Source: an uncultured bacterium (GTDB lineage Bacteria > Verrucomicrobiota > Kiritimatiellia > RFP12 > UBA1067). From it: 64,000 nt of DNA. Location: NCBI GenBank assembly GCA_902770045.1, contig CACXRO010000014.1, positions 27,516 to 91,515 of the forward strand. Direction: 5' to 3'. Made by a program: the position numbers and the translations under genes. The notes beneath the pieces were generated by a model. That model searched no databases, was not told where the DNA came from, and was given only the letters and a program-made list of their open reading frames with translations. Below are positions 1,833 to 63,752 of this stretch, one piece after another (the first letter of the stretch is position 1; each line of letters starts with the position of its first letter).

Positions 1833-2657
1833 CTACCTCTTTGCGCCCTTCAGGACTTCGACGAGCGAATTCTGCAGGAGCTCGTTGTGTTCCGGCAAGG
1901 TGTCGCCTTCGACGATGCGACTGCATTTGTCGCAGATCCCGCACAGGTTTTCGTACAAAGCCGACTTCTCCTTTGCCGAAGCAAGTGACGCGGTCATTGC
2001 CGCGACGCGACTGGCTTCGTCCGCCGCCGCGGCAGTTTCCTGGCTGCAGATGCTGTTCGTCGCCGCCGCGATTTCCGCCGCGGCTTTGCACTCCACCACC
2101 TCTACATGCTTGTTCCAACCCCAAAGCCTGCCCTTCTCGAGGCGCTCGACCGAGACCTGGCACGGGAAGGCGTTGGTGGCCGCAAAGGCGCGGAGCCGGA
2201 CAATCTGATTGGTGCGATGGGCGTAGACGGTGGTGAGGATCAGAAGCTCCCGGTCAAGCTGCTTGATTTCCTTCTGCTGTCCCGAGAGCATCCTTTCGCA
2301 AACAGACTTCCGCTCCTTCCAGATGCGGCGCCAGCACTTTGCATAGCCTTTCGGGTCTTTCCGCCGCGCCTCGTCCGTCCACTCCCAGGGCAGAATCTCG
2401 TTGCCCTGCTCCTTGAGCCACGCATGGATCTCCGGCTCCAGCCCAACCTCGGCGTCCGACCAATTCGCAGCCGGCTTCACGAGCAGCCGCACGCAGCTCG
2501 CCCTTTGCGCCTCCTCGAGGAACTGCGCAAGCGTCTGGTGCTGCGTCTCCTCCGGCGGCCATAGGCGCACCACCACCCGATAGGCCAGCGCCAGCACGAC
2601 CACCACCAACAGTGCCGCGCCAAACATCCCCGCCAACTCCTTCGCCTCCTTTTTCAT
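1833..2657 (-). CDS. hypothetical membrane-anchored protein (one N-terminal TM helix, coiled-coil-like remainder)
   Basis: 274-aa ORF. The N-terminus is MKKEAKELAGMFGAALLVVVVLALAYRVVV. I recognise no family motif. A promoter motif abuts the ATG. Confidence 0.5.
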   Translation of the reverse strand: MKKEAKELAGMFGAALLVVVVLALAYRVVVRLWPPEETQHQTLAQFLEEAQRASCVRLLVKPAANWSDAEVGLEPEIHAWLKEQGNEILPWEWTDEARRKDPKGYAKCWRRIWKERKSVCERMLSGQQKEIKQLDRELLILTTVYAHRTNQIVRLRAFAATNAFPCQVSVERLEKGRLWGWNKHVEVVECKAAAEIAAATNSICSQETAAAADEASRVAAMTASLASAKEKSALYENLCGICDKCSRIVEGDTLPEHNELLQNSLVEVLKGAKR

Positions 2658-2664
2658 GCCCGGT

Positions 2665-2673
2665 ATTATACCA
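2665..2673 (-). promoter_or_regulatory. extended -10 TGGTATAAT, 7 nt from the ATG (leaderless configuration)
   Basis: Minus strand reads ttttTGGTATAATACCGGGCATG, with the ATG at 2657. Confidence 0.6.
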
Positions 2674-2792
2674 AAAATTCAGGTCTGCGGACGGAGATCT
2701 CGCGAAAACCGCCGGCCGCAGGCCTGTCCGGGCTCTCTCAGCCGGATACTGCCTAATGGCACACTAGTATACGGCGGGGAGTGGGAGAACTG

Positions 2793-2835
2793 ACAGGAAA
2801 GTGTTTGAGTTGAGAGGGTTTGAGTTGGGAGGCGG
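2793..2835. repeat. direct repeat copy A (GAGTTG/CAACTC-rich) flanking the hipBA module
   Basis: acaggaaagtgtttgagttgagag at 2793-2816 is identical to 4476-4499. The following ggtttgagttgggagg is similar to 4510-4524. Confidence 0.8.
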
Positions 2836-2841
2836 ATAACG

Positions 2842-4037
2842 CTATGCTTCCAGCCGGCGCGCGATCGCCTCGGCAAGTTCGCCGCGGACACCGGCCTCGG
2901 ACGCGAAACGCAGCCAGTCGCGGACGGCGCCCCTCACTTCGTCAAGGACTGCGCGCGCACGGCGCTCGCGCATGTTGGCGAACGTCGCCAAGGCGAGGAT
3001 GTCCGCTTCCTCAATGCCGGTGCGCCCCATTCGCCGCGCCTATCCATCAGGTACGCGATGTTCTTCACGTGGTCGTCGCAGTTCCACGCGAGGACGTTGA
3101 ACGCCATGCGGCGGAATAGCTGCTCGTCCGCCCGCGCGTCGTTCACCACCTGCCGCGTGACGCGAAACGCCTGCTCGTAGGAATATCCGGACGGGTCGTT
3201 GAAATCCATGTGCGCCATCGCCCCCAGCGTCTGCGCATGCAGCTTGCCGCCGTCCGGAAGCCGGTCGAACCGCCGCGTCATGAAGTGCCGTCCGTCCCAG
3301 AGACGGCATTCCGTCATCTCTATCCCGGCGGCACGGGCCATGAGATGGTAGGCATACTCGACGCGGCCATAGCCCCACTTGTCGTCGCCCTCCCTGTCGC
3401 CGTTGCCCGCGATTCCGTCGAACTTGACGAGCCAGTAGCCGAATCCTCCGGGAAGCGCAATCTGGCCGGAGCGCACTTCCCCCGTCGCCTCGTTCCAGCC
3501 GATGAGCGCCTTCGCCCTGGCGCCGCCGGCGGAAGATCCGACCCTGAGGATGGAGGCGTACCGCTTCATGTCGGGGACGAGCCTGGCGACGGACTCGGTC
3601 CGCACCCTGAGCACCTCGGCAGCCAGTTCGGCAAGGGCGTCGACATGGAGTTCCTCCGACTTGTCCTCGTCATCGAACAATGCCGGCCTGTACTCAAGCG
3701 CCCCCATCCCGCGAACGCCGGTGTAGCAAAGGCGTTCAATCGGCGTGAGGCTTTCCGGCAGCCGCCCCTGCGCCTTCAGCCACGCACCGATCACTGCGTT
3801 GCCGAACTTGTCCGGAAGCGAATCGGACAGCATTCCCGGGAGCCCGTGGAACGAGACCTGGGGAAGCGCGGCAAAAGAATACGTTCCGGCGCCTACGGGC
3901 ATCATCAACGGCGACGGCTCGATGCCCGCAACAATAAACTCCCGGTCATATGCAAACGACGCCCAGGAAGATCCCTCGGTCCTTGACACGACGCCAATGC
4001 GCCGTCCCCAAAGATAGACTTCCGCCGCTTCGTTCAT
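2842..4037 (-). pseudogene. hipA: HipA-family Ser/Thr kinase toxin, disrupted near 3013-3030 (internal deletion/frameshift)
   Basis: ORF 2934..4037 has the HipA N-terminal domain and the catalytic CDDHVKN motif. The expected W-x-LAPAYD segment is truncated to EWGAPA. The C-terminal tail (GRTGIEEADILALA...WLRFASEAGV...) continues in another frame as ORF 2842..3030. Confidence 0.65.
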
Positions 4038-4369
4038 TGGTCAGTCCCCCACACTTTGGCCGCCGCGCGCCTCCGCCGTGCGCGCTTCGGCAATGTTCGC
4101 TTTGCGAGGATGTCCTGCGGCGACAACTGCACCTCCGGAAGCAGCGACTCAAAACCATCCGTCAGCGACAACGCGCCACAAACGGCAAAGAAAACATCAA
4201 GCCGAAGTCCTCCAGCACCAGCCTCAAGCCGCTCAAGTGATCGCTTGGACACTCCAGCTCGCTGCGATAGCTCTGCCTGCGTTATGTTGCGAGCAAGCCT
4301 GACTTGCGCGAAACGCCTACCCGCCTCGCGTAAAGCCTCGTCCACAGTCATTGCCACATTGAATTTCAC
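4034..4369 (-). CDS. hipB: HipB-like XRE-family HTH antitoxin
   Basis: Contains ...LARNITQAELSQRAGVSKRSLERLEAG. There is a 4-nt overlap with the hipA start. The track start 4369 is a GTG. An in-frame ATG at 4351 (MTVDEAL) is an alternative start. Confidence 0.7.
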   Translation of the reverse strand: MKFNVAMTVDEALREAGRRFAQVRLARNITQAELSQRAGVSKRSLERLEAGAGGLRLDVFFAVCGALSLTDGFESLLPEVQLSPQDILAKRTLPKRARRRRAAAKVWGTDQ

Positions 4370-4388
4370 AATTCTACCTTTCTGGCGA

Positions 4389-7907: not shown

Positions 7908-8843
7908 ATGATCTTCATATATACCTTCAGCCAGGACTCGACCACTGACATAGTATTGGAAGAACTAGGCAAAAACGATGTTCTACGATTGAATATCGAC
8001 AAAACAGAGAATTTCGCATGGGATTTTCACCGCTATGGATTTTACATCGTTGACAAGTCGAACAACAAGGAAATTTCCGACAAAACAATATCTTCTTTCT
8101 ACCTTCGCAAACCAATTTTTCTAGATAGTATCGACATACCAAGATTCGGATGTGTAGAAAACTGGCGTCGAGAGGAAACGAGCGAGTTGTTTCAGGACTT
8201 CTACCGCGAATGTCAGCATCGCGGACTCGTCACACTCGTTCGCTCTCAGGACAACAAATACGGCAAACTGCGGCAGCTCCTCGTCGCACAGAAATATTTC
8301 CGCGTCGCCAAGTGGCACTTCTTCCATGGCAAGCTGCCCGAAGAGTGCAAACGCGGCAGATGGGTGGTGAAGTCGATGACGCAAACGTCTATCGGGGAAA
8401 ACAAGGTTTTCTTCGTCAAAGAAGTCGATCCCGCCGCGCTGGACCTCTCCTATCCGTGGTTCGTGCAGGAGCGGATCGAGGGCGAAGAGGAAGTGACGGT
8501 AGTCTATGTCGACGGCAAGACCTACGCTGCAAGCGCGGCGCGTGAATCGTTCGGCGGAGAGGACTCGCGGAAGTCGCTGCTTGAGCATCCAGTTGCCTGG
8601 CCGCGATGCGAGCTGACGCCGGAGGAGGAGCGCGCGATACGCGGCTTCATGGATGAGACGGGCTACCGGTTCGGGCGCTTCGACTTCATCCGCAAGGACG
8701 GCGAGCTGTGGTTCCTGGAGCTGAACCCGAACGGACAGTGGGCGTGGCTCGACGAGAAGAACGAGCACGGGCTCGTCTCAATGGTAGCTGGCGCGATCAA
8801 GGCCGAAGACCGGACGCATCGGGCGCGTCCATCTCTTCTCTGA
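7908..8843 (+). CDS. MdnC/MvdD-type ATP-grasp macrocyclase (graspetide synthetase)
   Basis: The N-terminus MIFIYTFSQDSTTDIVLEEL...LRLNIDK and C-terminal FDFIRKDGELWFLELNPNGQWAWL resemble MdnC (VLIVTFSRDNESIPLV...; IFLEINPVGEFFWL) from memory. The first ~300 nt are AT-rich. Confidence 0.7.
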   Translation: MIFIYTFSQDSTTDIVLEELGKNDVLRLNIDKTENFAWDFHRYGFYIVDKSNNKEISDKTISSFYLRKPIFLDSIDIPRFGCVENWRREETSELFQDFYRECQHRGLVTLVRSQDNKYGKLRQLLVAQKYFRVAKWHFFHGKLPEECKRGRWVVKSMTQTSIGENKVFFVKEVDPAALDLSYPWFVQERIEGEEEVTVVYVDGKTYAASAARESFGGEDSRKSLLEHPVAWPRCELTPEEERAIRGFMDETGYRFGRFDFIRKDGELWFLELNPNGQWAWLDEKNEHGLVSMVAGAIKAEDRTHRARPSLL

Positions 8844-9411
8844 CCTTCGCGGCGGTTTCGCGCAGCTTCGCGGTGAGGCGGGCGCGGATCTGGTAGAGGT
8901 TGTCGCGCGAGAGGCCGTAGAGCTTCATCACCGCCTCGGTGTCCTGCCCATCAACCGTGCTCGCCACGAACGCCGCGTAGTGGTCGGGGCGGACTTCCGG
9001 CTTGATGCGGCGCAGCGCCTCCTCCAGCGCGGCGGCCTGCCATTCGCGCTCGGAGAATCCGTTGTCGTCGCCAGGCTTCGTCTCTAAGACGTCCTTCAGC
9101 GCGGCGTCGCGGTTCCTCTCCCGGAACTTGTCCTTGACGCGCCAGTGGACGAGCCCGGTCAGGTACGACCTGAACTTGCCCTTCGCGCGGTCGTACTGGA
9201 ACGTCGGGAGGTTCCGCGCGAGGTCGGAGAAGACGACCTGCAAGACGTCGTCCGCGTCATCCTCCGAGAGCCCCTTGGAGCGCGCGATGGAGAAGATAAA
9301 CCCCGCATAGAGGTCGAAGAGCCGCTGCCAGGCGGCCTGGTTGCCGGTGTCCGCGACCGCCCTGATTACGCTGGAGCGCGTCGCCTCATTATTGAAGTGT
9401 CTGTAGGTCAT
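8797..9411 (-). CDS. ECF-type RNA polymerase sigma-70 family factor
   Basis: Region 2-like DDADDVLQVVFSDLARNL and region 4-like YGLSRDNLYQIRARL are present. There is a 4-nt overlap with the upstream kinase gene, and a convergent 47-nt overlap with the ATP-grasp 3' end. Confidence 0.75.
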   Translation of the reverse strand: MTYRHFNNEATRSSVIRAVADTGNQAAWQRLFDLYAGFIFSIARSKGLSEDDADDVLQVVFSDLARNLPTFQYDRAKGKFRSYLTGLVHWRVKDKFRERNRDAALKDVLETKPGDDNGFSEREWQAAALEEALRRIKPEVRPDHYAAFVASTVDGQDTEAVMKLYGLSRDNLYQIRARLTAKLRETAAKVREEMDAPDASGLRP

Positions 9412-10544
9412 TTAGAATCGCTTTCGTCACTCTCGTTATCAGTGGACTTCGGCGCGAAGTCAGCTTGCAGCCTGGCAAGATGTTCCTTCTGCTCGTTTTT
9501 CATTTCCTCAAACTGCGTGGAAAGTTCCATGTCCAACTCCCCGCTCCTAATCCGCTGTAGATTCGGGTCGTTCTTAACAGCATCTTCAACCAGCGATTTT
9601 TTCACCTCCTGCACGGAGACCGAGCGTCCACTGGAGGCGACAAGAAACCAGATGGCACCAATGGCGGCCAACGCCAGAAGCGCAATTGCGACCTTGAACA
9701 GAGGAGAACCTACAACCACGATTCTGCGATTAAGGCTTTCGAAGTCCTTCAAGAGCGCCTTGGCAGACTGGTAGCGTCGGGATGGTGTTGGATCAGTTGC
9801 CTTGTTGAGGATACGCCACCAGGCGGGGAAGAACCTTGATCCCGTATCCGCCTCCAGCGCAGGGCCCTTGTCCAGATCCTCGATTTTCCGGCCAAAGCTC
9901 GCGGCCTTCAGAGTGAGGCCGAGGCTGTAGACGTCGCCGGAGGCGGCGGTGAAGCTCTCCGGCGGAACATAGCCGGGGGTGCCGACCAGCGATGCCGCCG
10001 CAGCTTCCTCGACTACAAGTCCGGGGTCGGAAAGAACAGGACGGCCGCCGACATAGATTATGTTCCCGGGCTTGATGTCGCGGTGCAGCAGATGGTGGCG
10101 CTGGAGCGCGGCAAGTCCCTTGGCGAGGGTGACGCCAAGCTTGACGCACTCGCCGAGCGGCAGCGCCTTTTCGCCGGCGATGACGCTGGCAAGCGTCTTG
10201 GGGCGATAACCGGCTGACGCTTCCTGTGGACCGCCGAATTCGTCGTCCGCAAGCTCCATAACGGCAAAGAAGCCCCACGGCTCCTCCGCCAGTTCCAGCA
10301 TCCGGACAAGCCCTTCCTGCGGAGGAATCGCCCGGTAGAGTTTTGCGCCGCGCAGCTCGCGCTCGAAGCGCTCATCGCCAATATCTTCGCAACGGCAGAC
10401 CTTGACCGCCACGCGTCCGCCGTCAGGCGCGGAGGCGAGATAGACCGTGCCGTACGCGCCGCGGCCGATCTCCTGCTGGAGCCCGTATTCCCCGCATTGA
10501 CGCGGAAGCTCCCCACCTCCATCATGTATCGTGTCGAAAAGCAT
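9408..10544 (-). CDS. Ser/Thr protein kinase with a C-terminal TM helix and an extracytoplasmic coiled-coil tail
   Basis: Motifs GRGAYGTVY, AVKV, HRDIKPGNI, SDPG and GTPGYVPPE are present. The TM helix is PLFKVAIALLALAAIGAIWFLVA. Confidence 0.85.
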   Translation of the reverse strand: MLFDTIHDGGGELPRQCGEYGLQQEIGRGAYGTVYLASAPDGGRVAVKVCRCEDIGDERFERELRGAKLYRAIPPQEGLVRMLELAEEPWGFFAVMELADDEFGGPQEASAGYRPKTLASVIAGEKALPLGECVKLGVTLAKGLAALQRHHLLHRDIKPGNIIYVGGRPVLSDPGLVVEEAAAASLVGTPGYVPPESFTAASGDVYSLGLTLKAASFGRKIEDLDKGPALEADTGSRFFPAWWRILNKATDPTPSRRYQSAKALLKDFESLNRRIVVVGSPLFKVAIALLALAAIGAIWFLVASSGRSVSVQEVKKSLVEDAVKNDPNLQRIRSGELDMELSTQFEEMKNEQKEHLARLQADFAPKSTDNESDESDSK

Positions 10545-14240: not shown

Positions 14241-15041
14241 TCAGGCGTAGAAGTTGCCCAGGGCGCGGAGCTTCGAATAGCGCTCCTCGACCAGCTGGTC
14301 GACGGGGACCTTCGCCAGTTCCTTGAGCGCCTTGAGGACCGCCTTCTTCACGTTCGCCGCGGCGGCGGCGTGGTTCGTCTGGGCGCCGCCGGCGGGCTCG
14401 GGCACGATCTCGTCGATCGCCTTGAGCCGCTTGAGGTCGCGGGCGGTGATCTTGAGCGCCTTCGCGGCCTCCGGGGCCTTGGATCCGTCGCGCCAGAGGA
14501 TGCCGGCGCAGCCCTCGGGGGAAATCACCGAGTAGACGGCGTTCTCGAGCATCAGCACGCGGTCGCCGACGGCAATCGCGAGCGCGCCGCCGGAGCCGCC
14601 TTCGCCGGTGACGACGACAACCACCGGAGTGCGGAGACGGGCGAAGAACTCGAGTGACTTCGCGATCGCCTCGGCCTGGCCGCGCTCCTCGGCCTCGCGG
14701 CCGGGATAGGCGCCGGGGGTGTCCACGAAGGTGACGACGGGCAGGTGGAACTTCTCGGCGAGCTTCGCGAGCCGCATCGCCTTGCGGTAGCCGTCGGGGT
14801 TGGCCATGCCGAAGTTGGCCTCCATGTTCTCCTCGACCGTCGCGCCCTTGTTGTGGCCGAGGACGAGGCACTTGACGCCGCCGATCGTGGCGAAGCCGCC
14901 CACGAGGGCGCGGTCGTCGTTGACGAGCCGGTCGCCGTGGAGCTCCGTGAAGTCGGAGCAGATGCGCGCGATGAAGTCCTTGAGGTGCGGCCGCTTCGGG
15001 TCGCGCGCGAGCTTCACGCAGTCCATTGCACTCTTAGCCAT
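14241..15041 (-). CDS. accA: acetyl-CoA carboxylase carboxyltransferase alpha subunit
   Basis: Contains ...LHGDRLVNDDRALVGGFATIGG...VTFVDTPGAYPGREAEERGQAEAIA. AGGAG precedes the ATG. Confidence 0.85.
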   Translation of the reverse strand: MAKSAMDCVKLARDPKRPHLKDFIARICSDFTELHGDRLVNDDRALVGGFATIGGVKCLVLGHNKGATVEENMEANFGMANPDGYRKAMRLAKLAEKFHLPVVTFVDTPGAYPGREAEERGQAEAIAKSLEFFARLRTPVVVVVTGEGGSGGALAIAVGDRVLMLENAVYSVISPEGCAGILWRDGSKAPEAAKALKITARDLKRLKAIDEIVPEPAGGAQTNHAAAAANVKKAVLKALKELAKVPVDQLVEERYSKLRALGNFYA

Positions 15042-15056
15042 AGCGAGATCTCCTAA

Positions 15057-15887
15057 CTAGAATCCCCAGTAGCCGAGCATCTTGGCGATGAAGCCCTTCA
15101 TCTCCTTGCGCTCGACGATCTTGTCGATGAAGCCGTGCTTCTCCAGGTACTCGGCGCTCTGGAAGTCGTCCGGCAGCTTCTGGTGGATGGTGTTCTCGAT
15201 CACCCTGCGCCCGGCGAATCCGATGAGCGCCCTGGGCTCGGTTATGTTGATGTCGCCGAGCATCGCGAACGAGGCGGAGACGCCGCCGGTGGTGGGATCG
15301 GTGAGCACCGAGATGTAGGGGAGCCCCGCCTCCTTGAGCTTCGCGATCGCGGCGGAGGTCTTGGCCATCTGCATGAGCGAGAGGATGCCCTCCTGCATCC
15401 GCGCGCCGCCGGAGGCGCAGAAGAGGACGAGCGGCAGCCGCTCCGCGACGGCGCGCTCGCAGGCGCGGGCGATGCGCTCGCCGGTACCGGTGCCGAGCGA
15501 CCCGCCCATGAACGCGAAGTCCATCACCCCGAGCATCGCGGGATGGCCGTCGATGCGGCAGACGCCCATCACCACCGACTCCCTCTCGCCGCTCTTGGCG
15601 ATCGCGGCCTCGACCTTGTCGCGGTAGGAGCCGGACGCGTCGCGGAACTCGAGGTGGTCTGAGTAGCTGACCTCGCGGAACACCTCGCTGAAAGAGCCTT
15701 CGTCGGCGACGAGCGCGATGCGCGCGCGCACCGGCAGCCGGCCGTGGTAGTTGCACTTGGGGCAGATGCCGCCGGCCTTCTTCCAGGCGGCCTTGCCGAA
15801 GTGGCTCTTGCACTTCGGGCACACCGCCCAGACCGCCTTCTCCGGCGGGATTGCGGGCTTCTCGGTCTTGGGGACGAACCAGGACAT
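15057..15887 (-). CDS. accD: acetyl-CoA carboxylase carboxyltransferase beta subunit (Zn-ribbon N-terminus)
   Basis: CPKCKSH...CPKCNYH is followed by MGGSLG and SGGARMQEG motifs. Confidence 0.85.
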   Translation of the reverse strand: MSWFVPKTEKPAIPPEKAVWAVCPKCKSHFGKAAWKKAGGICPKCNYHGRLPVRARIALVADEGSFSEVFREVSYSDHLEFRDASGSYRDKVEAAIAKSGERESVVMGVCRIDGHPAMLGVMDFAFMGGSLGTGTGERIARACERAVAERLPLVLFCASGGARMQEGILSLMQMAKTSAAIAKLKEAGLPYISVLTDPTTGGVSASFAMLGDINITEPRALIGFAGRRVIENTIHQKLPDDFQSAEYLEKHGFIDKIVERKEMKGFIAKMLGYWGF

Positions 15888-15909
15888 CGCATTCCTCCTT
15901 GGGTTTAGA

Positions 15910-16200
15910 TCAGCTTTCGGCTCCCTCGACGATCTTGGGGAGCAGGAACTCGTCGCCGGTGCGCGCCGGCGCGTTGGCGAGCGCGGTCTCGGCGGGGAGC
16001 GACTCCCCGACCACGTCCTCGCGGAAGACGTTGACGAGCTCGCGCCCGTGCATCATCGGCGGGACGCCCTCGACGTCGACGGAAGAGATCTTGTCCACGT
16101 ACTCGACGATGCTCTCGAGCTGCGGCTGGAAAGTCGCCTTCTCCTCCTCGGTGAGCTCCAGCCGCGCGAGCTCGGCGACGTAGGAAACGTCGATCTTCAT
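15910..16200 (-). CDS. gatC: Asp/Glu-tRNA amidotransferase subunit C
   Basis: MKIDVSYVAELARLELTEEEKATFQPQLESIVEYVDKI... I prefer ATG 16200 (GAGGGAG upstream) over the track's GTG 16206. Confidence 0.8.
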   Translation of the reverse strand: MKIDVSYVAELARLELTEEEKATFQPQLESIVEYVDKISSVDVEGVPPMMHGRELVNVFREDVVGESLPAETALANAPARTGDEFLLPKIVEGAES

Positions 16201-16210
16201 CGCCACTCCC

Positions 16211-17359
16211 TCAGCGCTGCCACACCGGCGAGATGAAGTTGCCGCTCGCGCCGAAGAGCTGGCGGGGCTTGTCGCCGTCCTTGAGCGTGTCGATTATGAA
16301 CAGCGCCTTGTCGCGGCTGGCGACGAGGTGGCGCATGTCGCGCGACCAGGACGGGTGCTCCCAGTTGCCCTCGGGGGTGACGAGCTCCGCCGAAACGTCG
16401 CCCTCGGCCGGGCTCATCACGGCGATCTGCGCGCCGCCGCGCTTGGTGATGTAGGCGATGCGGCCGTCGGGGCCCCAGTCGGGGTCGACGTTCTCGCGCC
16501 CCTTGGAGGTCAGCCGTCGCTTCGCCTTCGTCGCGACGTCGACGACGAAGATCTGCGGGTTGCGGGCCTCGTTGGAGACGTAGGCGATCTTCTTGCCGTC
16601 CGGGCTCCACGCTGGCTGGCCCTCGCTCGCGAGCGGGGTGTTGGTGAGCCGGACGAAGCGGTCGCCGGAGATGACGTAGAGCTCGGGGTTGCCGTGCACG
16701 GTGAGGATCGCCGCGACCTTGGTGCCGTCGGGCGAGACCGCGATCCCGTCCGGCGAGCCCTTGAGGCTCCACTTCTGGCGGCGCGTGCCGGTGGCGGTGT
16801 CGAGCTCCCACACCTGCGGCGAGCCCTTGAGGTCGCTGATGTACATCACCGAGTCGCGGTCCTTCCAGCGCTGGAAGATCGTCATGCGCCCGTCGCCGGT
16901 GAGCTGCTTCACGTCGTAGCCGTCGGGGTAGCTGACGCACATCTCGCTCGGCCGCACCTGGCCGCGGCCGGCGGACTTGCCGCGGTTGAGGAAGAGCACC
17001 CGGTCGAGCGCGAAGCCCTTCTGGTTGCCGAACGCCTCGCACATCGCGTCGGCGAAGCGGCGCGCGGCCATGCGGGCGGACTTGTCGTCGGAGAACGCCT
17101 CGGCCGAAGAGACCACCTTGCCGCGGCCCTCGGCCTTCATCGCGCCGGACGCCCCGCTCACCTTGATCGTGCCGTCGCCGCGGACGGTGAAGAGCCCCGA
17201 GATCTCGAGGTTCTTCGCCAGGCACTTCGAGTACGCGCCGTTGGCGACCTGGATCGACACCGTGAACTTCTGGGCGCCGACGCCGGAGATGTTGACGACC
17301 GTCTCCGCCGACGCGGCGAGAGCAAGGGCCATTGCGGCCAGGGAGATAATTCTTTTCAT
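16211..17359 (-). CDS. TolB-like periplasmic beta-propeller protein (PD40 repeats)
   Basis: The signal peptide is MKRIISLAAMALALAASAE. Repeated SPDG/WSPDG motifs occur. The track ORF (to 17623) is an artefactual extension through the heptamer array. Confidence 0.7.
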   Translation of the reverse strand: MKRIISLAAMALALAASAETVVNISGVGAQKFTVSIQVANGAYSKCLAKNLEISGLFTVRGDGTIKVSGASGAMKAEGRGKVVSSAEAFSDDKSARMAARRFADAMCEAFGNQKGFALDRVLFLNRGKSAGRGQVRPSEMCVSYPDGYDVKQLTGDGRMTIFQRWKDRDSVMYISDLKGSPQVWELDTATGTRRQKWSLKGSPDGIAVSPDGTKVAAILTVHGNPELYVISGDRFVRLTNTPLASEGQPAWSPDGKKIAYVSNEARNPQIFVVDVATKAKRRLTSKGRENVDPDWGPDGRIAYITKRGGAQIAVMSPAEGDVSAELVTPEGNWEHPSWSRDMRHLVASRDKALFIIDTLKDGDKPRQLFGASGNFISPVWQR

Positions 17360-17375: not shown

Positions 17376-17382
17376 TATTCGC

Positions 17383-20400: not shown

Positions 20401-21087
20401 GCCGCCGTCGCGCAGCACGGACTTCTCGTCGATGCGTCCGCGGCCGTAGCCGTAGCCGGGCACGTCGACGCGGATCGGCAGCGACTTCGCCGCCGCCGCG
20501 CGCGGCCACGCGATCAGTCCCGTGGCCGGTCCGAGTGAGGGGATGAGGTTGACCGAGAAGGCGTTGACGACGACGTTGGTGTCCTTGGACGCGACCGGGG
20601 TGAGCACGGGGCTCATCGGCACGGATTTAAGCCGCGCGAGCTCGAGGTCCCAGAACGCGTTGAAGTCGTCCGGCGCAGGCTTCGCCGGGATGCGCTCCGC
20701 GTCCGCGGCAGCGCTGGAGTCGAAGATGTCCGAGCCCGGGACCTGCCTTCCGTCCTCGTCGACGGCGCGAACGACGAGGTGGACGAAGCCGGGCGCGTCG
20801 AGCTTCGCCTTGACGACGAGCGGCTGGTCGGAGGACGCTTCGCCGGCGCGGCGGCTGCCGTCGTCGCCTTCGAGCGTCCAAGCGACGCGGCGGCCCGGGA
20901 CCGGCGCGTTCTTGGCGCTGCGGTCGACGAGCGTGACCGTGAAAACCATCTCCTCGCCGCAGGCGTAGGAGAGCGGGTCGCGGTCGGTGACGCCGTGGAA
21001 CGAGAGCGACTCGGCGGCGGAGGCGCCGAGCGCCGCGGCGAGCGCAAGCGCGCAGGCGAGCGGGCGGACAGTGCGGGTTGGGTTCAT
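17463..21087 (-). pseudogene. secreted three-domain protein (AXE1/CE7-like esterase, unknown middle domain, FAD-dependent oxidoreductase), frameshifted near 18213-18219 (or a sequencing error)
   Basis: The start MNPTRTVRPLACALALAAALGASA is ATG 21087, with AAGGAG upstream and an ATGA overlap with xseA. The nucleophile elbow is GGGSMGG and the FAD motif is DLVVYGSSPAAISAAVQAKRMG. The reading frame switches between ...LLFREYAAMEK and GRDFVPLIMSRMPDGKTDSNN. Confidence 0.6.
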
Positions 21088-22310
21088 TTCTCTCCTTTCG
21101 CGGTCGCGGACACGACCGAGACGGCTTCGCCGCGGGCGAAGCGGGTCCTGATTTCGTCGCCCCGCTTCAGCGCCGAGGCGTCGCGCACCGCCGAGCCGTC
21201 CGGCCCGGTGACGATCGCGTAGCCGCGCTCGAGCACTCCGTAGGGCGAATACGCCTCGAGCTTCGCCTGGGCCTTCTCGAGCCGCGCGGCGGCGGACTGA
21301 ATAGCGAGCGACTTCGCCGCGTCGAGTCGCGGCACGGCGCGCTCGAGCCGGCGCTCGGCCTTCGCGAGCGCGGCCGCCAACGCGGCGGCGAGCGAGTCGC
21401 CGAGGTGGTCGAGTCGCTGCGCGGTGACGTCGCCCCGGCTCTGGAGCGTGGCGGCCAGCTTGGACGCGAGAGCGTTCACGCGCTCGAGCAGATCCGCGCG
21501 CACCGGCACGGCGATCTCCGCGGCAATCGAGGGCGTGCCGGCGCGCCGGTCGGCGGCGAAGTCGCAGAGGGTGAAGTCGGTCTCGTGGCCGACGGCGCTG
21601 ATGACCGGAATCGCGGAGGCGGCGACGGCGCGGACGAGCGACTCGTCGTTGAAGCAGAAGAGGTCCTCGAAGCTGCCACCGCCGCGCGCGACGATGACGA
21701 GGTCGGCCCGCCAGTCCGGGCAGGAGTTGAAGTACTCGAGGCCGGCGACGATCCGCGGCGGCGCGTCCGCGCCCTGCACGAGGCAGGGGAAGAGCCTGAT
21801 TTCCAGCGCCGGGAAGCGCCGCGTCAGCACGGTGCACATGTCGTGCACCACCGCGCCTGCCTCGCTGGTGACGAGCCCGATGCGCCGCGGCAACGGCGGC
21901 AGCGGACGCTTCTTCGCGGGATCGAAGAGCCCTTCCTGCTCGAGCTTCGCCTTGAGCGCGAGGTAGCGCTGCATCAGCTCGCCGACGCCGGCGAGCCGGG
22001 CGCTGAGGACGTTGAGCTGGTAGTTGCCGCGCGGCGGATAGACGGTGAGGCTGCAGTAGAGGGCGACCTTGGCGCCGTCCTTGAGCTCGTCCCGCGCAGC
22101 GCAGCGCTGGAAGGCGGAGGCGAACATCACCGCCGCGATCTGCGCGCCCTCGTCCTTTACCGTGAAATAGCGGTGGCCGGAGGCGGCCGGGCGCCAGCCG
22201 CTGATCTCGCCTTCGACGATGATGCGCGACCAGCCGCGCTCCAGCGCGCCCTTGACCGCCGCGGTGAGCGAGGTCACGGTGAAGTGCGGGTATTTCGACT
22301 CCTCCGCCAC
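21084..22310 (-). CDS. xseA: exodeoxyribonuclease VII large subunit
   Basis: An OB-fold N-terminus (...TVTSLTAAVKGALE...VEGEISGW) is followed by ...VVARGGGSFEDLFCFNDE. The start codon is GTG. Confidence 0.85.
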   Translation of the reverse strand: MAEESKYPHFTVTSLTAAVKGALERGWSRIIVEGEISGWRPAASGHRYFTVKDEGAQIAAVMFASAFQRCAARDELKDGAKVALYCSLTVYPPRGNYQLNVLSARLAGVGELMQRYLALKAKLEQEGLFDPAKKRPLPPLPRRIGLVTSEAGAVVHDMCTVLTRRFPALEIRLFPCLVQGADAPPRIVAGLEYFNSCPDWRADLVIVARGGGSFEDLFCFNDESLVRAVAASAIPVISAVGHETDFTLCDFAADRRAGTPSIAAEIAVPVRADLLERVNALASKLAATLQSRGDVTAQRLDHLGDSLAAALAAALAKAERRLERAVPRLDAAKSLAIQSAAARLEKAQAKLEAYSPYGVLERGYAIVTGPDGSAVRDASALKRGDEIRTRFARGEAVSVVSATAKGEK

Positions 22311-22314
22311 GGCC

Positions 22315-23478
22315 TCACCTCACCAGCAGCTTGCGCAGCTTCTCGCGCTTGCGGTCGCGGTAGGAGTGGATACCCACCGAGAGAATCGTCCCGACCGCGA
22401 AGAAGGACGCGAGCATGTTCGTGCCGCCGTAGCTGAAGAACGGCAGCGCCATGCCCTTGGTGGGCAGCGCCTCGCAGACGACGCCGATGTTGAAGATCGC
22501 CTGGAAGAAGATGATGAACGCCATCCCGAGCGCGAGGAAGCGCCCGAAGCGGTCCGACGCGGAGCGGGCGATGTAGACCGAGAGGAGGAAGAACGCGAGG
22601 AAGAGGAGAAGCGTGCCGACCGAGAAGATTATCCCCAGCTCCTCCGCGCCGATGGCGAAGATGAAGTCGGTGTGGTTCTCGGGGAGGTATTTCTGCTTCT
22701 GCATGGACTGGGTGAGTCCCACGCCCCAGACGCCGCCGTTCATCATCGCCACCAGCGCCTGGTTGGCCTGGTAGGCCGCGCGCCTCGCGGCCTCGTCCAT
22801 CACCTGGGCGCCGACGTCGATCTTCACGCCGAAGAACGCCGCGATGCGCGCCATGCGGTTGGCGTTGGTGGCCACCTTGTAGACGAACGCGCAGATGCCG
22901 ACGACGGCGAACGGCGCGAGGTGCAGGAGGCGCGTCCCCGCGACGAACATCACCAGGAAGCCGGAGAATCCGATCACCATCGTCGAGCCGAAGTCCGGCT
23001 CGGCCATCACCGGGAGCGCCAGGAACCCGATGAGCAACGCGGGCACGAGCGCCCCGCGGCGGAAGAGCTCCACCCGCCAGGCGGCCAGGTCAAGCCAGAC
23101 CGAGACCACGATGACCACCGCGAGCTTGGCGAACTCGCTTGGCTGCAAATTGACAGGACCGAGCGAGATCCAGCGGTAGGAGCCGTTGATCCTGCGCCCG
23201 AGCGGCGGAAACACCGCGATGAGCAGCAGGAACACGATCGCGTAGAACATCCACGCAAGCGCCGGGGTGTCGCGCCAGCGCCGGTAGTCTACCGCCGCCA
23301 CCACCACCGCAAGCACCACGCCCACCCCGAGGTAGGCGAACTGGCGCTTCATGAAGTAGTAGGCGTCGCCGTGCAGCCTGACGCCGTTGACCTCGCTGGC
23401 GCTCGACAGGACTAAAAAGCCCAGCGCCACGAGGATCGCGACGACCAGGCCGAATGCGCAAAGCGCAGACTTGCGCAC
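22315..23478 (-). CDS. ftsW: FtsW/RodA/SpoVE-family (SEDS) protein
   Basis: About 10 TM segments, with ...PSEFAKLAVV... and ...GMALPFFSYGGTNMLA. It lies next to murD. Confidence 0.75.
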   Translation of the reverse strand: MRKSALCAFGLVVAILVALGFLVLSSASEVNGVRLHGDAYYFMKRQFAYLGVGVVLAVVVAAVDYRRWRDTPALAWMFYAIVFLLLIAVFPPLGRRINGSYRWISLGPVNLQPSEFAKLAVVIVVSVWLDLAAWRVELFRRGALVPALLIGFLALPVMAEPDFGSTMVIGFSGFLVMFVAGTRLLHLAPFAVVGICAFVYKVATNANRMARIAAFFGVKIDVGAQVMDEAARRAAYQANQALVAMMNGGVWGVGLTQSMQKQKYLPENHTDFIFAIGAEELGIIFSVGTLLLFLAFFLLSVYIARSASDRFGRFLALGMAFIIFFQAIFNIGVVCEALPTKGMALPFFSYGGTNMLASFFAVGTILSVGIHSYRDRKREKLRKLLVR

Positions 23479-23484
23479 AGCTGC

Positions 23485-24525
23485 TTACTGCTGGGCTTCA
23501 GCCGGCAGCTTGATGACCTGCCCAGGCTTGAGCTGGGCGTCGTCGGGGAGATTGTTGAGCTCGCGGATCTCGGCGGCGGAGACGCCGAAGCGGATCGTGA
23601 TCGACGTCAGGTCGTCGCCCTCCTGCACCACATAGGTGTTGAAGTCGGGAGCGGCGTCCTTCTTCGCGGCGTCCTCGGCTGCGGCGGGCTGGGCCTCGGC
23701 GGCGGCCTCCTCCTGCTTCCCGGCGGCGGCAGGCTCGGGCTTGATCTCGGCGGCGGACTTGGCCTCGGCGGCGGCGGCCTTCGGGGCCTCGGCCTTGGCG
23801 GCCTTGGCGGCAGGCTTGCCATCAGCCGGGATCTTGAGCTTCTGGCCGATGCGCAGCACGTCGCCGCTCAGGCCGTTGAGCTCCTTGAGCTGGCGGATGT
23901 TGATGCCGTTGCCGTAGGCGATCGCGCCGAGGGTGTCGCCGTTCTTGACGACGTACTCCTTGGTCGCGCCGGTGTAGGGCGTGTAGGACTTCTTCGCGGC
24001 GGCGGCGGCCTTGGGCGCCTCGGCAGCGGCGGGCGCGGCGGTCATGGACTCGGGCAGCTTGCCGGGGATCTTCAGCTTCTGGCCGATGCGGATCGTATCG
24101 CTCTTGAGGTCGTTGGCTTTCTTGATCGCGGCGATGGTGACGTTGCACTTCTTGGAGATCTTCGCGAGGTAGTCGCCGTTCTGGACGACGTAGATCGAGT
24201 ACTCCTGATCGGACGCGGGCACCTTTGCGCTCTTGGTCTTGACGATGCACGCGCAGTCGTCAGCGCCGCACTTGCACGGCTCGGCGTGGATGGTGCCGGG
24301 CGCGCAGAGGCAGCCCTTCTTGGCGATGACCGGCGGCGTGGGCGCGGGAGAGTCCTTGACCTCCGTCTTGTTCACGCCGGTGTCGGCTGGCGGCGGCGCC
24401 GGCTGCGTGTCGGCCATGCGCACATCCGACTGATTCGAAGCGCCGGGGCGCTTGAAGTCAGGATCCTTGCAACCAGAGAACGTCGCGACGGCCGCGACCG
24501 AGAGAACCACTGCGAGCTTGTTCAT
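23485..24525 (-). CDS. lipoprotein with three LysM domains and Ala/Pro-rich linkers
   Basis: The lipobox is ...ATFSGC. Three Y(V)VxxGDxLxxI...IGQKLKIP repeats are present. Confidence 0.8.
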   Translation of the reverse strand: MNKLAVVLSVAAVATFSGCKDPDFKRPGASNQSDVRMADTQPAPPPADTGVNKTEVKDSPAPTPPVIAKKGCLCAPGTIHAEPCKCGADDCACIVKTKSAKVPASDQEYSIYVVQNGDYLAKISKKCNVTIAAIKKANDLKSDTIRIGQKLKIPGKLPESMTAAPAAAEAPKAAAAAKKSYTPYTGATKEYVVKNGDTLGAIAYGNGINIRQLKELNGLSGDVLRIGQKLKIPADGKPAAKAAKAEAPKAAAAEAKSAAEIKPEPAAAGKQEEAAAEAQPAAAEDAAKKDAAPDFNTYVVQEGDDLTSITIRFGVSAAEIRELNNLPDDAQLKPGQVIKLPAEAQQ

Positions 24526-25631
24526 GTTTTGTCTTTTCCTTGTCCTTTGACGAGTTGCGCGAAGACCTCTCCGCGTTCCTCGAAGTTTTTAAACTGGTCG
24601 AAACTCGCGGCTCCCGGGGAAAGCAGCACCTTCTCGCCGTTCGCCGCCTCGCGCTTCGCCCTCTCGACCGCCTTCTCCAGGGTGCCGCAGACCTCGCAGT
24701 CCACGTCTTTGGACCAGGCGGAAAAGAGACTTTCCGCGCTTTGACCGATAAGATACACTTTTTTGACCCACTTTGTCAAGATGGGTAGTGAAATTTTCGG
24801 GTCGTCGCCTTTGGCGAGTCCGCCGGCCAGAAGACGCACCAAACGCCCGCCAGATGCGGCTTTGGCGGCCATTTCGACGCCTGCGGAGAGCGCCGCGAGC
24901 GAAGTCGCCTTGGAGTCGTCGATGTACTCGACGCCGTCGATCTCGGCCACTTTCGCCATCCGGTGGGGCAGCGGCTCGAACGCGGCGAACGCGCGCGCGA
25001 TCTCCTCGTCGCCGAGCCCGGCGACGCGCATCAGCGCCGCGGCGGCGAGTCCGTTCGCGCACAGGACGCGGTTGTCGAAGTATGATCCGGCGAGGAGCGC
25101 GGGGTCCTCGACGCACGGCTCGTCGAGCCCGACGCGGCGCTTCGCCATCGCCCAGAGACGGCGCTTGAGCGCGTGGTACGTCGCCGCGTCGCCGTGGCGG
25201 TCGAGGTGGTCCTCCTGCAGGTTGAGGATCGCCGCCGCCTCGAAGAAGTCGGCTGGCAGCGAAGTCGTCTCGAGCATGAAGGACGACACCTCGACGACCG
25301 CCCATCCGGTGCGCTCCTCGCGCGCGACGTCGCTCACCGGCCGGCCGTAGTTGCCGCAGGGGACGGCGAATCCGCCGGCGAGGTTGATCGCGTCGGCGAC
25401 GACCTTGACGACGCTCGACTTGCCCTTCGAGCCGGTGACTGCGAGGAGTCGCCAGCCGCGCTTCTTCAGCTCGCGGCAGCCGTACTCGAGCTCGCTCATG
25501 ACGCGCACGCCGGGGCTCGCCACCGCGAAGTCGACGCCGTCGGCGAACTCCACCTCGCCGCCGCCAGCCGCCGCGAGCGCCGCCGCCGCCTCGCCGCTGC
25601 GGCCGCGTCCGATGACGAGCACCCTACCCAT
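24522..25631 (-). CDS. murD: UDP-N-acetylmuramoylalanine--D-glutamate ligase (short form)
   Basis: AVTGSKGKSS P-loop and Mur ligase middle/C-terminal motifs (...NLQEDHLDRHG..., ...DDSKATS...) are present. Confidence 0.8.
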   Translation of the reverse strand: MGRVLVIGRGRSGEAAAALAAAGGGEVEFADGVDFAVASPGVRVMSELEYGCRELKKRGWRLLAVTGSKGKSSVVKVVADAINLAGGFAVPCGNYGRPVSDVAREERTGWAVVEVSSFMLETTSLPADFFEAAAILNLQEDHLDRHGDAATYHALKRRLWAMAKRRVGLDEPCVEDPALLAGSYFDNRVLCANGLAAAALMRVAGLGDEEIARAFAAFEPLPHRMAKVAEIDGVEYIDDSKATSLAALSAGVEMAAKAASGGRLVRLLAGGLAKGDDPKISLPILTKWVKKVYLIGQSAESLFSAWSKDVDCEVCGTLEKAVERAKREAANGEKVLLSPGAASFDQFKNFEERGEVFAQLVKGQGKDKT

Positions 25632-26616
25632 GGAGCTTGACGACGCCGAGGTCGGAGGGAATCCACCAGCCGTGCGGCGAGAGGTCGAAGGAGAACACCT
25701 TGACTCCGTCCGGCGCGCAGTTGCGCTTGAAGGCCTGGGTGAAGAAGCGGCGCAGGAAGATCGCGAGGGTCGCCTTGATCTCCGCGTCGGCGAAGCGTCC
25801 CCGGAAGAACTCCTTCGCCGCGTCGGCGAGCCGCTTCGGCCCCATCTCGTTGACGATGAAGTTCCAGAGGAAGAAGTCGTGCAGCTCGTACGGCCCGATC
25901 GTCCGCTCCGTGACCTGCCCCTTCACGAGCTCGGGCGAGACCGGCGTCGCCACGATGTCCTCCACCGCCGCGGCCGCGGCGCCGGGATGACGGGCCGCCC
26001 ACCAGGAGCACACCCTGCGCACCACGGTCTTGGGGACGCCGGAGTTGACGCAGAACATGGACATGTGGTCGCCGTTGTAGGTGCACCAGCCGATCGCGAT
26101 CTCGCTCAGGTCGCCGGTGCCGACCACGATGCCGCCGACCATGTTGGCGCGGTCCATCAGCACCATCGTGCGCATCCGCGCCTGGGCGTTCTCGTAGGCG
26201 GCGTCGGGCGTGGTGCCGTCGTGGCCGATCTCCTTCAGGTGGCGGCGCACGATGCCGCCGATCGGGATCGTCTCGGTCGCGACGCCGAGGCCCTCCGCGA
26301 ACGCGAGCGCGTTGCCGCGCGTCCGCCGCGTGGTGCCGAAGCCGGGCATGGTGATCGCGTGGATGCGCTTCGGGTCGAGGCGGAGGCGCGCGAACGCCTC
26401 GCGGCAGACGAGGAGCGCGAGCGCGGAGTCGAGTCCGCCGGAGACGCCCACCACGACGTCGCGGCAGCGGATCGCCCGAAGGCGGCGCCTAAGCCCCGCG
26501 ACCTGCGCGGCGAACACCTTCGCCGGGCTGCACGGAAACGGCGCGACCGCCCCCTTCTTCGGCGGCAGCCCCAGAAAGGCGCGGTGCCCGGCGAGCGAAC
26601 CCAGTTCCCTTTTCAT
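25624..26616 (-). CDS. nadE: NAD+ synthase (synthetase domain only)
   Basis: GVSGGLDSALAL PP-loop and ...GTGDLSEIAIGWCTYNGDH are present. Confidence 0.8.
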   Translation of the reverse strand: MKRELGSLAGHRAFLGLPPKKGAVAPFPCSPAKVFAAQVAGLRRRLRAIRCRDVVVGVSGGLDSALALLVCREAFARLRLDPKRIHAITMPGFGTTRRTRGNALAFAEGLGVATETIPIGGIVRRHLKEIGHDGTTPDAAYENAQARMRTMVLMDRANMVGGIVVGTGDLSEIAIGWCTYNGDHMSMFCVNSGVPKTVVRRVCSWWAARHPGAAAAAVEDIVATPVSPELVKGQVTERTIGPYELHDFFLWNFIVNEMGPKRLADAAKEFFRGRFADAEIKATLAIFLRRFFTQAFKRNCAPDGVKVFSFDLSPHGWWIPSDLGVVKLHG

Positions 26617-26626
26617 GCAAGTTTTC

Positions 26627-27277
26627 CTAATCGTAATACGAAAGCCGCTTCTCGATCCGCTCCATCGCCCAGGCGACGGCGAAGTTGAAGACGTAGTAGA
26701 AGACGCCGGCGGCGACGAGCGGGGCCATCGTGGTGTTGGAGCTCGAGAGCTGGCGGGCGATGGTGAACATCTCGGTGACGGCGATGGTGAAGGCGAGCGA
26801 AGTGTCCTTGACGAGCGTGATCACCTCGTTGCCGACCGCCGGTATGACGCGCTTCACCACCTGCGGCAGGATGATGCGCATGAATGTGGTCGTGCGCGGG
26901 AACCCGAGCGCCGCGGCGGCCTCGCGCTGGCCGGGGTCGATCGAGAGGATGCCGCCGCGGTAGATCTCGGCGAAGTAGGCGCCGTAGTTGAGGCCGAAGG
27001 CGATCACCGTGGCGAGGAGCCGCGGGTAGCTCGCGAGCGGCATCCCGAACATGAAGTAGGGCGCGAAGTAGACGAAGATGATCTGCAGCATCAGCGGGGT
27101 GCCGCGCACCACCGAGATGTAGAGGCGGAAGAGCCCGGAGACCACCGGGCTCTTCGACATCCTCCCGAGCGCCACCACGAGCCCGAGCGGCAGCGCCACC
27201 GCGAGCGTAAGGACGAAGATCTCCACCGAGACCGCAAGTCCCGAGAGGAGATCAACGACCATGCCGGAGTACGACAT
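26627..27277 (-). CDS. polar amino-acid ABC transporter permease
   Basis: 216 aa. Contains an EAA-like ...IDPGQREAAAALGF... loop. Confidence 0.8.
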   Translation of the reverse strand: MSYSGMVVDLLSGLAVSVEIFVLTLAVALPLGLVVALGRMSKSPVVSGLFRLYISVVRGTPLMLQIIFVYFAPYFMFGMPLASYPRLLATVIAFGLNYGAYFAEIYRGGILSIDPGQREAAAALGFPRTTTFMRIILPQVVKRVIPAVGNEVITLVKDTSLAFTIAVTEMFTIARQLSSSNTTMAPLVAAGVFYYVFNFAVAWAMERIEKRLSYYD

Positions 27278-27278
27278 C

Positions 27279-28052: not shown

Positions 28053-28081
28053 GTCGTTTCCCCCGTTTGCGGGACAGGACC

Positions 28082-28987: not shown

Positions 28988-29030
28988 GTGTTGTTTTCTC
29001 CTTTGGTGGGTTTGTAGGGAAATCGGTCCA

Positions 29031-30988: not shown

Positions 30989-31003
30989 CGGTTTTGGTAT
31001 ACT
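30974..31003 (+). promoter_or_regulatory. sigma70-type promoter for tRNA-Glu: TTGACG-N18-(TGG)TATACT
   Basis: -35 at 30974-30979. Extended -10 at 30995-31003. It lies 17 nt before the tRNA 5' end and inside the first codons of dprA on the other strand. Confidence 0.55.
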
Positions 31004-35394: not shown

Positions 35395-35403
35395 ATTATA
35401 CCA
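35395..35403 (-). promoter_or_regulatory. extended -10 TGGTATAAT upstream of asd (29-nt leader with GAAAGG)
   Basis: Minus strand reads ggatttttGGTATAATACgcc. The element starts 12 nt after the lptF/G stop codon. Confidence 0.55.
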
Positions 35404-39805: not shown

Positions 39806-39814
39806 ATTATACCA
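39806..39814 (-). promoter_or_regulatory. extended -10 TGGTATAAT upstream of carB (44-nt leader with GAAAGG)
   Basis: Minus strand reads ggaaataTGGTATAATACacacc. Confidence 0.55.
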
Positions 39815-39824
39815 TATTTCCCCA

Positions 39825-51612: not shown

Positions 51613-51621
51613 ATTATACCA
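51613..51621 (-). promoter_or_regulatory. extended -10 TGGTATAAT upstream of the hexokinase gene (25-nt leader with AGGAGG)
   Basis: Minus strand reads ggtatttTGGTATAATtcccg. Confidence 0.55.
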
Positions 51622-62591: not shown

Positions 62592-62652
62592 TTGGCACCT
62601 CCAGTTGAATTTCGAGTATGCGAACGACGGGGGAAGATTTCTAAGAGGTTTG

Positions 62653-62666
62653 CCCCCCCCCCCCCC
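62653..62666. repeat. homopolymer C14 (G14 on the sense strand) in the leader of the giant gene
   Basis: Plus strand reads tg-cccccccccccccc-gcaa. It lies between the -10 at 62712-62720 and ATG 62591. Confidence 0.95.
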
Positions 62667-62711
62667 GCAAAATTTTAGCAGTTATGCTGATTCGCCGCTT
62701 CATTAATGCGA

Positions 62712-62720
62712 ATATTACCA
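62712..62720 (-). promoter_or_regulatory. extended -10 TGGTAATAT upstream of the giant gene (about 115-120-nt leader)
   Basis: Minus strand reads cgggataTGGTAATATtcgc. Confidence 0.45.
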
Positions 62721-62761
62721 TATCCCGCCAAGTCTGTCAACTGCCGCGGCACGGCGTATCG

Positions 62762-63736
62762 TCAGCGGCGGCGGGCGCGGCAGATGACGACGTCGTCGGC
62801 GACGGCGATGGTCTTCTCGCCGTCGACCTCGGCGAAGTCGGCGCTGGCGATGCACATGTAGCGCGGGTCGGCGCGGCCCTCGGAATGGTGCGCATGGAAG
62901 ACGATCCTGAGCCGCCCCTCGCGGTCGCGGAAGAACGAGTGGTGGCCGGTGCCGGACAGCCCCGCCTTGCGGAGCAGGATCGGGTTGGAGGCGTTCTTGG
63001 CGTAGGGTCCGGTGACCGACTTCGAGGTGGCGCAGCCGACGGCGTAGAGCGGGCTGCGGTAGTCGTTGGCGGACCAGGTGATGTAGTAGAGCCCGCCGTG
63101 CTTCAGCAGGAACGGTCCCTCGTTCACCCGCCCGAAGCCGCGCTTCTCCCATTCCCCGCGCGCGTCGAAGAGGAAAACCGGCTCCGCCCCCTTCTTGACC
63201 GCGGTCATGTCCTTCTCCATCTCGACGATGCGCGGACCAGATCCGTAGCCCGGTGCTCCGCCGGCGACATAGAGCATCCAGACGCGTCCGTCGTCGTCGG
63301 TGAAGAAAGAGTTGTCGATCGTGAAGCGGTCGTCCTCGAAAAGCGTGCGCTTCTCCGCCTGCCTGAACGGTCCGAGCGGCGAGTCGGCGACGGCGACGCA
63401 CACGCGCTCCTGGGCGGAGTACGCCATCACGTACCTGCCGTCGGCGCGGCGGTAGACCTCGGGCGCCCAGAACCAGCGCTCGCCCCAGACGTCGTCCTTG
63501 TGGAGCGCAAGCCCCTTCTTCGCCACGCCGACGCCGATGGTCCAGTCGACGAGGTTGGTGGAGACCGCGACCGGTATCCCGTCCGCGGCGCCGGTGCCGT
63601 AGGCGTAGTAGACGCCGCCGTCGAGGAGGACGAACGGGTCGGCGAGGTAGAGCCTGCCGTCGCCGCCGGCGTCGCCCGCGGCAAAGGCGGCGAAGGAGGC
63701 GAAAGCAAGAATCACGAATGCGAATGTCTTTCTCAT
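62762..63736 (-). CDS. glycoside hydrolase family 43 (beta-xylosidase/arabinofuranosidase-like)
   Basis: The true start is MRKTFAFVILAFASFAAFAAG (ATG 63736). It contains ...LADPFVL..., ...WAPEV... and ...NEGPFLLKHGGLYYITWS... Confidence 0.75.
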   Translation of the reverse strand: MRKTFAFVILAFASFAAFAAGDAGGDGRLYLADPFVLLDGGVYYAYGTGAADGIPVAVSTNLVDWTIGVGVAKKGLALHKDDVWGERWFWAPEVYRRADGRYVMAYSAQERVCVAVADSPLGPFRQAEKRTLFEDDRFTIDNSFFTDDDGRVWMLYVAGGAPGYGSGPRIVEMEKDMTAVKKGAEPVFLFDARGEWEKRGFGRVNEGPFLLKHGGLYYITWSANDYRSPLYAVGCATSKSVTGPYAKNASNPILLRKAGLSGTGHHSFFRDREGRLRIVFHAHHSEGRADPRYMCIASADFAEVDGEKTIAVADDVVICRARRR

Positions 63737-63743
63737 GGCAAGT

Positions 63744-63752
63744 ATTATACCA
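63744..63752 (-). promoter_or_regulatory. extended -10 TGGTATAAT, 7 nt from the ATG (leaderless configuration)
   Basis: Minus strand reads atgaataTGGTATAATACTTGCCATG, with the ATG at 63736. Confidence 0.6.

Follow-up and report, generated by a model that had tools for sequence, protein, structure and literature searches.

In a 64,000-nucleotide stretch of DNA from an uncultured rumen bacterium of the Kiritimatiellia (assembly GCA_902770045.1, contig CACXRO010000014.1, positions 27,516 to 91,515; hereafter the window), five genes begin 7–8 nucleotides (nt) after the TATAAT hexamer of an extended −10 element, aaTaTGGTATAATACgC, and are probably transcribed into leaderless mRNAs, the start position and the mode of translation being read from promoter geometry. 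The same reading, held with the same confidence, makes aaTaTGGTATAATACgC the housekeeping promoter of the organism, an extended −10 of the sigma-70 type in which a −35 is slight or lacking, and whose −35-independent function is likewise deduced from sequence. The genome to which the window belongs (G000) comprises 2.27 Mb in 87 contigs, is 85% complete and has a G+C content of 64.7%; close sequence matches come from rumen and gut genomes that bear the label Kiritimatiellae or Kiritimatiellia.

A sequence-only reading of the window had placed a −10 hexamer 7–8 nt from the ATG of five genes, and all five placements were verified; every hexamer sits inside TGGTATAAT, on the minus strand, with the following positions, spacers (TATAAT to ATG) and open reading frames (ORFs):

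2665..2673, minus strand: extended −10 TGGTATAAT, 7 nt (ACCGGGC) before ATG 2657, which opens an ORF of 274 amino acids
10552..10560, minus strand: extended −10, 7 nt (ACGTCAT) before ATG 10544, 378 amino acids
17367..17375, minus strand: extended −10, 7 nt (ACGCATC) before ATG 17359, 382 amino acids
29879..29887, minus strand: extended −10, 8 nt (ACACGCCA) before ATG 29870, 279 amino acids
63744..63752, minus strand: extended −10, 7 nt (ACTTGCC) before ATG 63736, 324 amino acids

Exact TGGTATAAT occurs 11 times in the window, against 0.02 expected from shuffles, and five of the ten minus-strand motifs of the window have an in-frame coding start at 6–10 nt, compared with 2.5% of random genome positions. 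Genome-wide, there are 540 copies of TATAAT, 387 of which carry TG one base 5′ of the hexamer (387 copies of TGNTATAAT), and 298 copies of TGGTATAAT; a profile scan in which one-off variants were allowed found 591 sites, versus 28 in the reversed sequence. The logo of the genomic motif sites reads a/g-a-a/t-T-a/t-TGG-TATAAT-A-C-g/a-C and contains no conserved −35.

The element also stands before genes that are not translated. At 23 tRNA genes or clusters (the genome has 39 tRNA genes) a −10 ends 11–24 nt before the mature 5′ end, one case being located in the window:

30995..31003, plus strand: motif TGGTATACT before tRNA-Glu (31021-31095), gap 17 nt

Because it precedes tRNA genes, the motif is a promoter rather than a ribosome site. 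The competing idea, that it is an A/T-rich ribosome site of a non-Shine-Dalgarno kind (as in GeneMarkS-2 group B) or a fragment of a dispersed repeat, draws on its Shine-Dalgarno (SD)-like distance from many start codons and on the unusual uniformity of its 298 exact copies; it is nonetheless highly improbable, since the motif, besides preceding tRNA genes, lies 20–60 nt from genes that have their own SD, fits the sigma-70 extended −10 consensus and has flanks that are not conserved beyond about 8 nt upstream, and since regions 3.0 and 4.2 of RpoD are like those of Escherichia coli. In the RpoD homologue, IRIPVHMIETINKL and a second stretch of 32 residues correspond to the E. coli segments by which the TG extension and the −35 are recognized.

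Three candidate explanations of the motif were discarded on separate grounds. A non-SD ribosome site does not account for tRNA promoters that carry it; a dispersed repeat or mobile element was rejected for want of conservation more than about 8 nt 5′ or more than 4–8 nt 3′ of the hexamer; and an unusual sigma factor was rejected on an RpoD that is canonical in regions 3.0 and 4.2 when compared with that of E. coli.

Across the genome, the interval between the −10 and the first in-frame start codon of a coding-scoring ORF follows the bimodal distribution predicted by the claim of two initiation modes: a sharp peak at 6–10 nt, a broad hump at 20–60 nt accompanied by an SD, and almost nothing at 0–5 nt. 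An in-frame coding start lies at 6–10 nt from 127 of the 387 TGNTATAAT sites (2.5% for random positions), with 18, 35, 46, 17 and 11 genes at 6, 7, 8, 9 and 10 nt, respectively; a slightly wider class of 5–11 nt holds 133 TGNTATAAT sites, with ATG at 127. Among the sites of the profile scan, 176 fall at 6–10 nt, 5 at 0–5 nt, 21 at 12–19 nt and 183 at 15–99 nt, and the start codon is ATG in 167 of the 176 (95%). Leaderless-type promoters would thus make up about 40% of the motif promoters assignable to a gene, and about a third of promoters overall. The sharpness of the 6–10 nt peak, set against almost nothing at 0–5 or 12–19 nt, argues for selection on the spacing itself.

This distribution bears on the suggestion that transcription comes mostly from promoters further upstream or from read-through, the box by the ATG being incidental or minor and the real mRNAs having leaders. 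Upstream transcription does exist in relatives, in which the orthologue of one of the five genes, encoding a TolB-like protein, is mostly operon-internal. Such leaders, however, would hold TATAAT where the SD should be, and hence have none; a sharp 6–10-nt peak requires selection on spacing; and the same motif drives tRNA genes, so that this account is distinctly unlikely.

Genes with longer leaders form the comparison class, which the sequence-only reading had also described and which was confirmed in the window, at 31, 29, 44 and 25 nt with GAAAG, GAAAGG or AAAGGAGG between promoter and start:

1678..1686, minus strand: comparison promoter with leader, 31 nt to ATG 1646
35395..35403, minus strand: comparison promoter with leader, 29 nt to ATG 35365, GAAAGG between
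39806..39814, minus strand: comparison promoter with leader, 44 nt to ATG 39761, GAAAGG between
51613..51621, minus strand: comparison promoter with leader, 25 nt to ATG 51587, AAAGGAGG between

Throughout the genome, leader genes show a purine-rich block at −14 to −6, and in 79 of 100 an SD core, 4 nt long or longer, lies 4–11 nt from the start; the 3′ end of 16S rRNA (...GGATCACCTCCTTTCT) is canonical, with an intact anti-SD. In the leaderless class the −10 box itself occupies the space upstream where an SD would sit. The second codon encodes lysine in 35% of leaderless-class genes versus 16% of leader genes. Within the 44-nt leader, between the promoter and the ATG of a 1076-residue gene (39806-39761, minus strand), lies a mini-ORF of seven codons (ATG AAA GGC TGG GCG GAC AAA TGA), whose stop overlaps that ATG and whose GAAAGG likely doubles as an SD.

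Base composition downstream of the hexamer indicates where RNA polymerase may start. Promoters with leaders share an ACGC discriminator and have A at the eighth base after the −10 in 51% of cases, compared with a background of 18%, preceded by C-rich positions; this enrichment fits a pyrimidine–purine start site at the eighth base. In the 7-nt class the same base is the A of the ATG, and in the 8-nt class it is, in 51%, an A just before the ATG. By geometry taken from other bacteria, polymerase would start about 7–8 nt past the hexamer, that is, at the A of the ATG or 1–3 nt before it, at the five flagged genes and some 170 others. Transcripts initiated there would open with the AUG or with up to 3 nt ahead of it, leaving no room for an SD, and translation would begin by recognition of the 5′-terminal AUG, as for leaderless mRNAs of other bacteria. 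The remaining promoters would give leaders of 15–50 nt, translated by canonical SD pairing with the intact CCUCC anti-SD, the two modes coexisting. The earlier expectation of an mRNA start at or within 1 nt of the AUG therefore agrees with the geometry, with the amendment that at spacings of 8–10 nt a leader of 1–3 nt is likelier than none. The public contigs that carry the TolB-like gene are all metagenome DNA assemblies, and their ends are therefore uninformative on transcript ends.

The second requirement of leaderless initiation is that the flagged ATGs be the true starts. The genes that they open are arranged as follows:

1833..2657, minus strand: gene 1, a 274-residue membrane protein, predicted leaderless
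9408-10544, minus strand: gene 2, a Ser/Thr kinase, predicted leaderless, followed by an extracytoplasmic function (ECF)-type sigma factor at 8797-9411 (unit 8797..10544)
14241..17359, minus strand: operon of gene 3, with the TolB-like PD40 protein at 16211-17359, gatC at 15910-16206, accD at 15057-15887 and accA at 14241-15041
21084..29870, minus strand: co-directional string of gene 4, from the ABC ATPase at 29031-29870 (alternative ATG 29858 = Met5) through a solute-binding protein, a permease, nadE, murD, a LysM protein and ftsW to xseA at 21084-22310
62762..63736, minus strand: gene 5, a GH43 glycoside hydrolase, predicted leaderless

The gene orders proposed by the sequence-only reading (kinase then ECF sigma; TolB-like, gatC, accD, accA; ABC ATPase through to xseA) were all recovered; its statement that leaderless genes head long operons holds for three of the five and fails for the other two.

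If the promoter were real but many genes were translated from a downstream in-frame start, the first ATG would belong to a short SD-less leader or to an unused extension of a few codons. Gene 1, whose product has no Pfam match, illustrates both sides of this possibility: its second ATG is preceded by AAGGAGGCGAAGGAG, with an SD-like AAGGAGG, but the corresponding methionine is a tryptophan in a 52%-identical orthologue, and the N-terminal MKKExKEL is kept in orthologues. That same orthologue has TAGTACAAT followed by 7 nt and ATG, and in a third species the same start lies behind an AAGGAG leader; together these features support ATG 2657 as the true start. In gene 2 the Pkinase match runs from residue 22, and there is no other in-frame start within 113 nt, nor any before the glycine loop; the position of the domain supports ATG 10544, and an extended −10 is found at 7–9 nt in five homologues of the genus. 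For gene 3, predicted to be leaderless, the reading frame stays open for 88 codons further upstream; orthologue N-termini and the conserved signal peptide MKRIISLAAMALALAASA, which begins at ATG 17359, support that codon as the true start, and public gene calls yield the identical 382-residue product. The signal peptide of gene 5, MRKTFAFVILAFASFAAFAA, likewise starts at ATG 63736 and supports it; the genus yielded two orthologues of this gene, too small a number for an assessment of conservation. Without the first ATG, the signal peptides of genes 3 and 5 would lose their charged start, and across the leaderless class 58 of 176 proteins, read from the flagged ATG, begin like a signal peptide or a membrane helix. 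The 95% ATG at 6–10 nt would be unexpected at an unused position. Widespread initiation at downstream codons is accordingly unlikely: the possibility, raised from the outset as one that would overturn the prediction, meets with support for the first ATG at genes 1, 2, 3 and 5 and leaves gene 4 with Met1 or Met5.

Several points nevertheless weigh against leaderless initiation as described. Orthologues of the ABC ATPase start M(S/A/E)ETLLK, aligned to window Met5 (ATG 29858), 12 nt downstream, and one of them has TGATATAAT followed by 7 nt and the Met5-equivalent ATG; no SD precedes either Met1 or Met5, and either of the two may be the start. In 13 of the 133 leaderless-class genes, an in-frame start further downstream has an SD core of its own. 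The modal spacing is 7–8 nt rather than 6 nt, and many transcripts may carry 1–3 extra bases. The start of transcription is placed by a promoter geometry established in other bacteria, and the census totals are approximate, the gene calls coming from a home-made codon-score caller instead of a benchmarked gene finder.

Further arrangements of the element were seen in the window and the genome. Genome-wide (for example G000:C17:23783-23836), its reverse complement, ATTATACCATA, is overrepresented in the 90 nt 5′ of promoters, reflecting divergent, back-to-back pairs whose members lie a few tens of nt from each other. On the minus strand of the window, TGGTATAAT at 4430-4438 and, 41 nt away, AGGTATAAT with its end at 4389 form a tandem of −10 boxes ahead of a 111-residue gene that starts with GTG 4369, with GAAAGG between. 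An exact TGGTATAAT at 11913-11921 on the plus strand lies within and antisense to a 782-residue gene (10648-12996), is followed by no coding ORF, and could represent either an antisense promoter or a chance occurrence. Tandem arrays with a 7-bp period stand directly upstream of three promoters, with the unit CCACGAA (minus strand) at 17378-17461 and 29893-29918 and CAGCCAG at 39824-39889; at least two CACGA units occur upstream of 19 of 386 promoters genome-wide, versus 0.6% of random windows. In the window the array at 17378 numbers about 12 units; a sister genome has about 8 and other strains about 3–4, with the promoter and the ATG unchanged in position.

Of 30 genus genomes, 29 carry a single copy of the TolB-like gene, which occurs in different layouts among relatives. 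It is leaderless in four genomes, combines an SD with an extended −10 in two, at distances of 31 and 44 nt, and is operon-internal in most of the others, where the TGA of the upstream gene overlaps its ATG. That upstream gene ends in ...CDFSLDYVHINADYTT, and the overlap reads ACATGA; the window locus lacks this gene, and the promoter there follows a FAD-oxidoreductase-like gene and the heptad array. Strains of the species of the window have either the discriminator ACGCATC (window) or ACACGTC, both of 7 nt.

Beyond this gene, the pattern TGGTATAAT-N6-9-ATG is found 127 times in G000 and 23–164 times in each of 24 other genus genomes, with 0–2 for reversed-pattern controls, and 0–6 times across 40 genomes drawn from the class. 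At the level of the order, counts at 6–9 nt were compared with those at 12–15 nt in 60 genomes, allowing TGN; these are samples, and kin among them are not independent:

G000: 156 at 6–9 nt, 27 at 12–15 nt
Three further genera of the family of G000: 40–115 at 6–9 nt, 6–28 at 12–15 nt
Three other genera of the family of G000: 0–8 at 6–9 nt, 1–7 at 12–15 nt
One genus of a second family: 63–87 at 6–9 nt, 8–25 at 12–15 nt
One genus of a third family: 14–45 at 6–9 nt, 0–9 at 12–15 nt

Other sampled families of the order gave few matches, with about equal counts at both spacings. We see an even chance that, within one Kiritimatiellia order, a small number of lineages from gut and rumen jointly took up leaderless initiation on a large scale and a −35-less TGGTATAAT promoter of very high information content, with little or none of this in the sampled sister genera and families. 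A given orthologue can be leaderless in one species and SD-led or translationally coupled in another. If true, this would be a case of frequent leaderless initiation in the Planctomycetes–Verrucomicrobia–Chlamydiae (PVC) superphylum whose gain and loss can be traced at the level of the genus; the patchy spread within one order, combined with one gene that switches between leaderless, SD-led and coupled layouts, would offer a close-range comparison for both events.

For annotation, gene callers that weight the SD can misplace starts in such genomes, and a spacing rule would improve the annotation of many uncultured rumen and gut Kiritimatiellia genomes. A promoter this uniform would also make transcription units readable straight from the sequence in these organisms.

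In summary, the layout is of a known kind, that of GeneMarkS-2 group C and Deinococcus deserti, in a group for which no earlier description was found in the papers searched, and entails no new mechanism. Mycobacteria, whose −10 is a loose TANNNT and in which GTG starts are common, share with G000 a −10 that adjoins the start codon, and differ from it in the near-perfect TGGTATAAT box and the 95% ATG seen here. The mycobacterial −10 lies directly before an ATG or GTG start in at least a quarter of transcripts (Cortes 2013; Shell 2015, both cited in PMC6028130). Group C (Lomsadze et al. 2018, PMC6028130) has a Pribnow box about 6–8 nt ahead of an operon's first gene in 25–50% of transcripts, with SD elsewhere. 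It is reported to be common among Actinobacteria and Deinococcus-Thermus and uncommon among Proteobacteria and Firmicutes; Verrucomicrobia, Planctomycetes and the PVC group go unmentioned in the main text of that paper. The Pribnow-box spacing and the coexisting SD class of G000 are like those of group C, to which its layout would assign it. SD use in Kiritimatiellae is given as 63% in one paper, and a literature search returned no description of a leaderless layout for Kiritimatiellia, other Verrucomicrobia or Planctomycetes. In D. deserti, where start sites were mapped by differential RNA sequencing and starts were checked by proteomics, a TATAAT-like −10 lies directly upstream with no conserved −35, 60% of mapped transcription start sites are leaderless, and 62% of leader genes have an SD (de Groot et al. 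2014, PMC4007540). G000 resembles it in the −10 adjoining the start, the absence of a −35, the large leaderless fraction and the SD on most leader genes; it differs in belonging to another phylum, in being known from sequence where D. deserti was mapped, in its near-invariant TGG extension, and in a leaderless share of about 40% of assigned motif promoters, against 60% of transcription start sites there.

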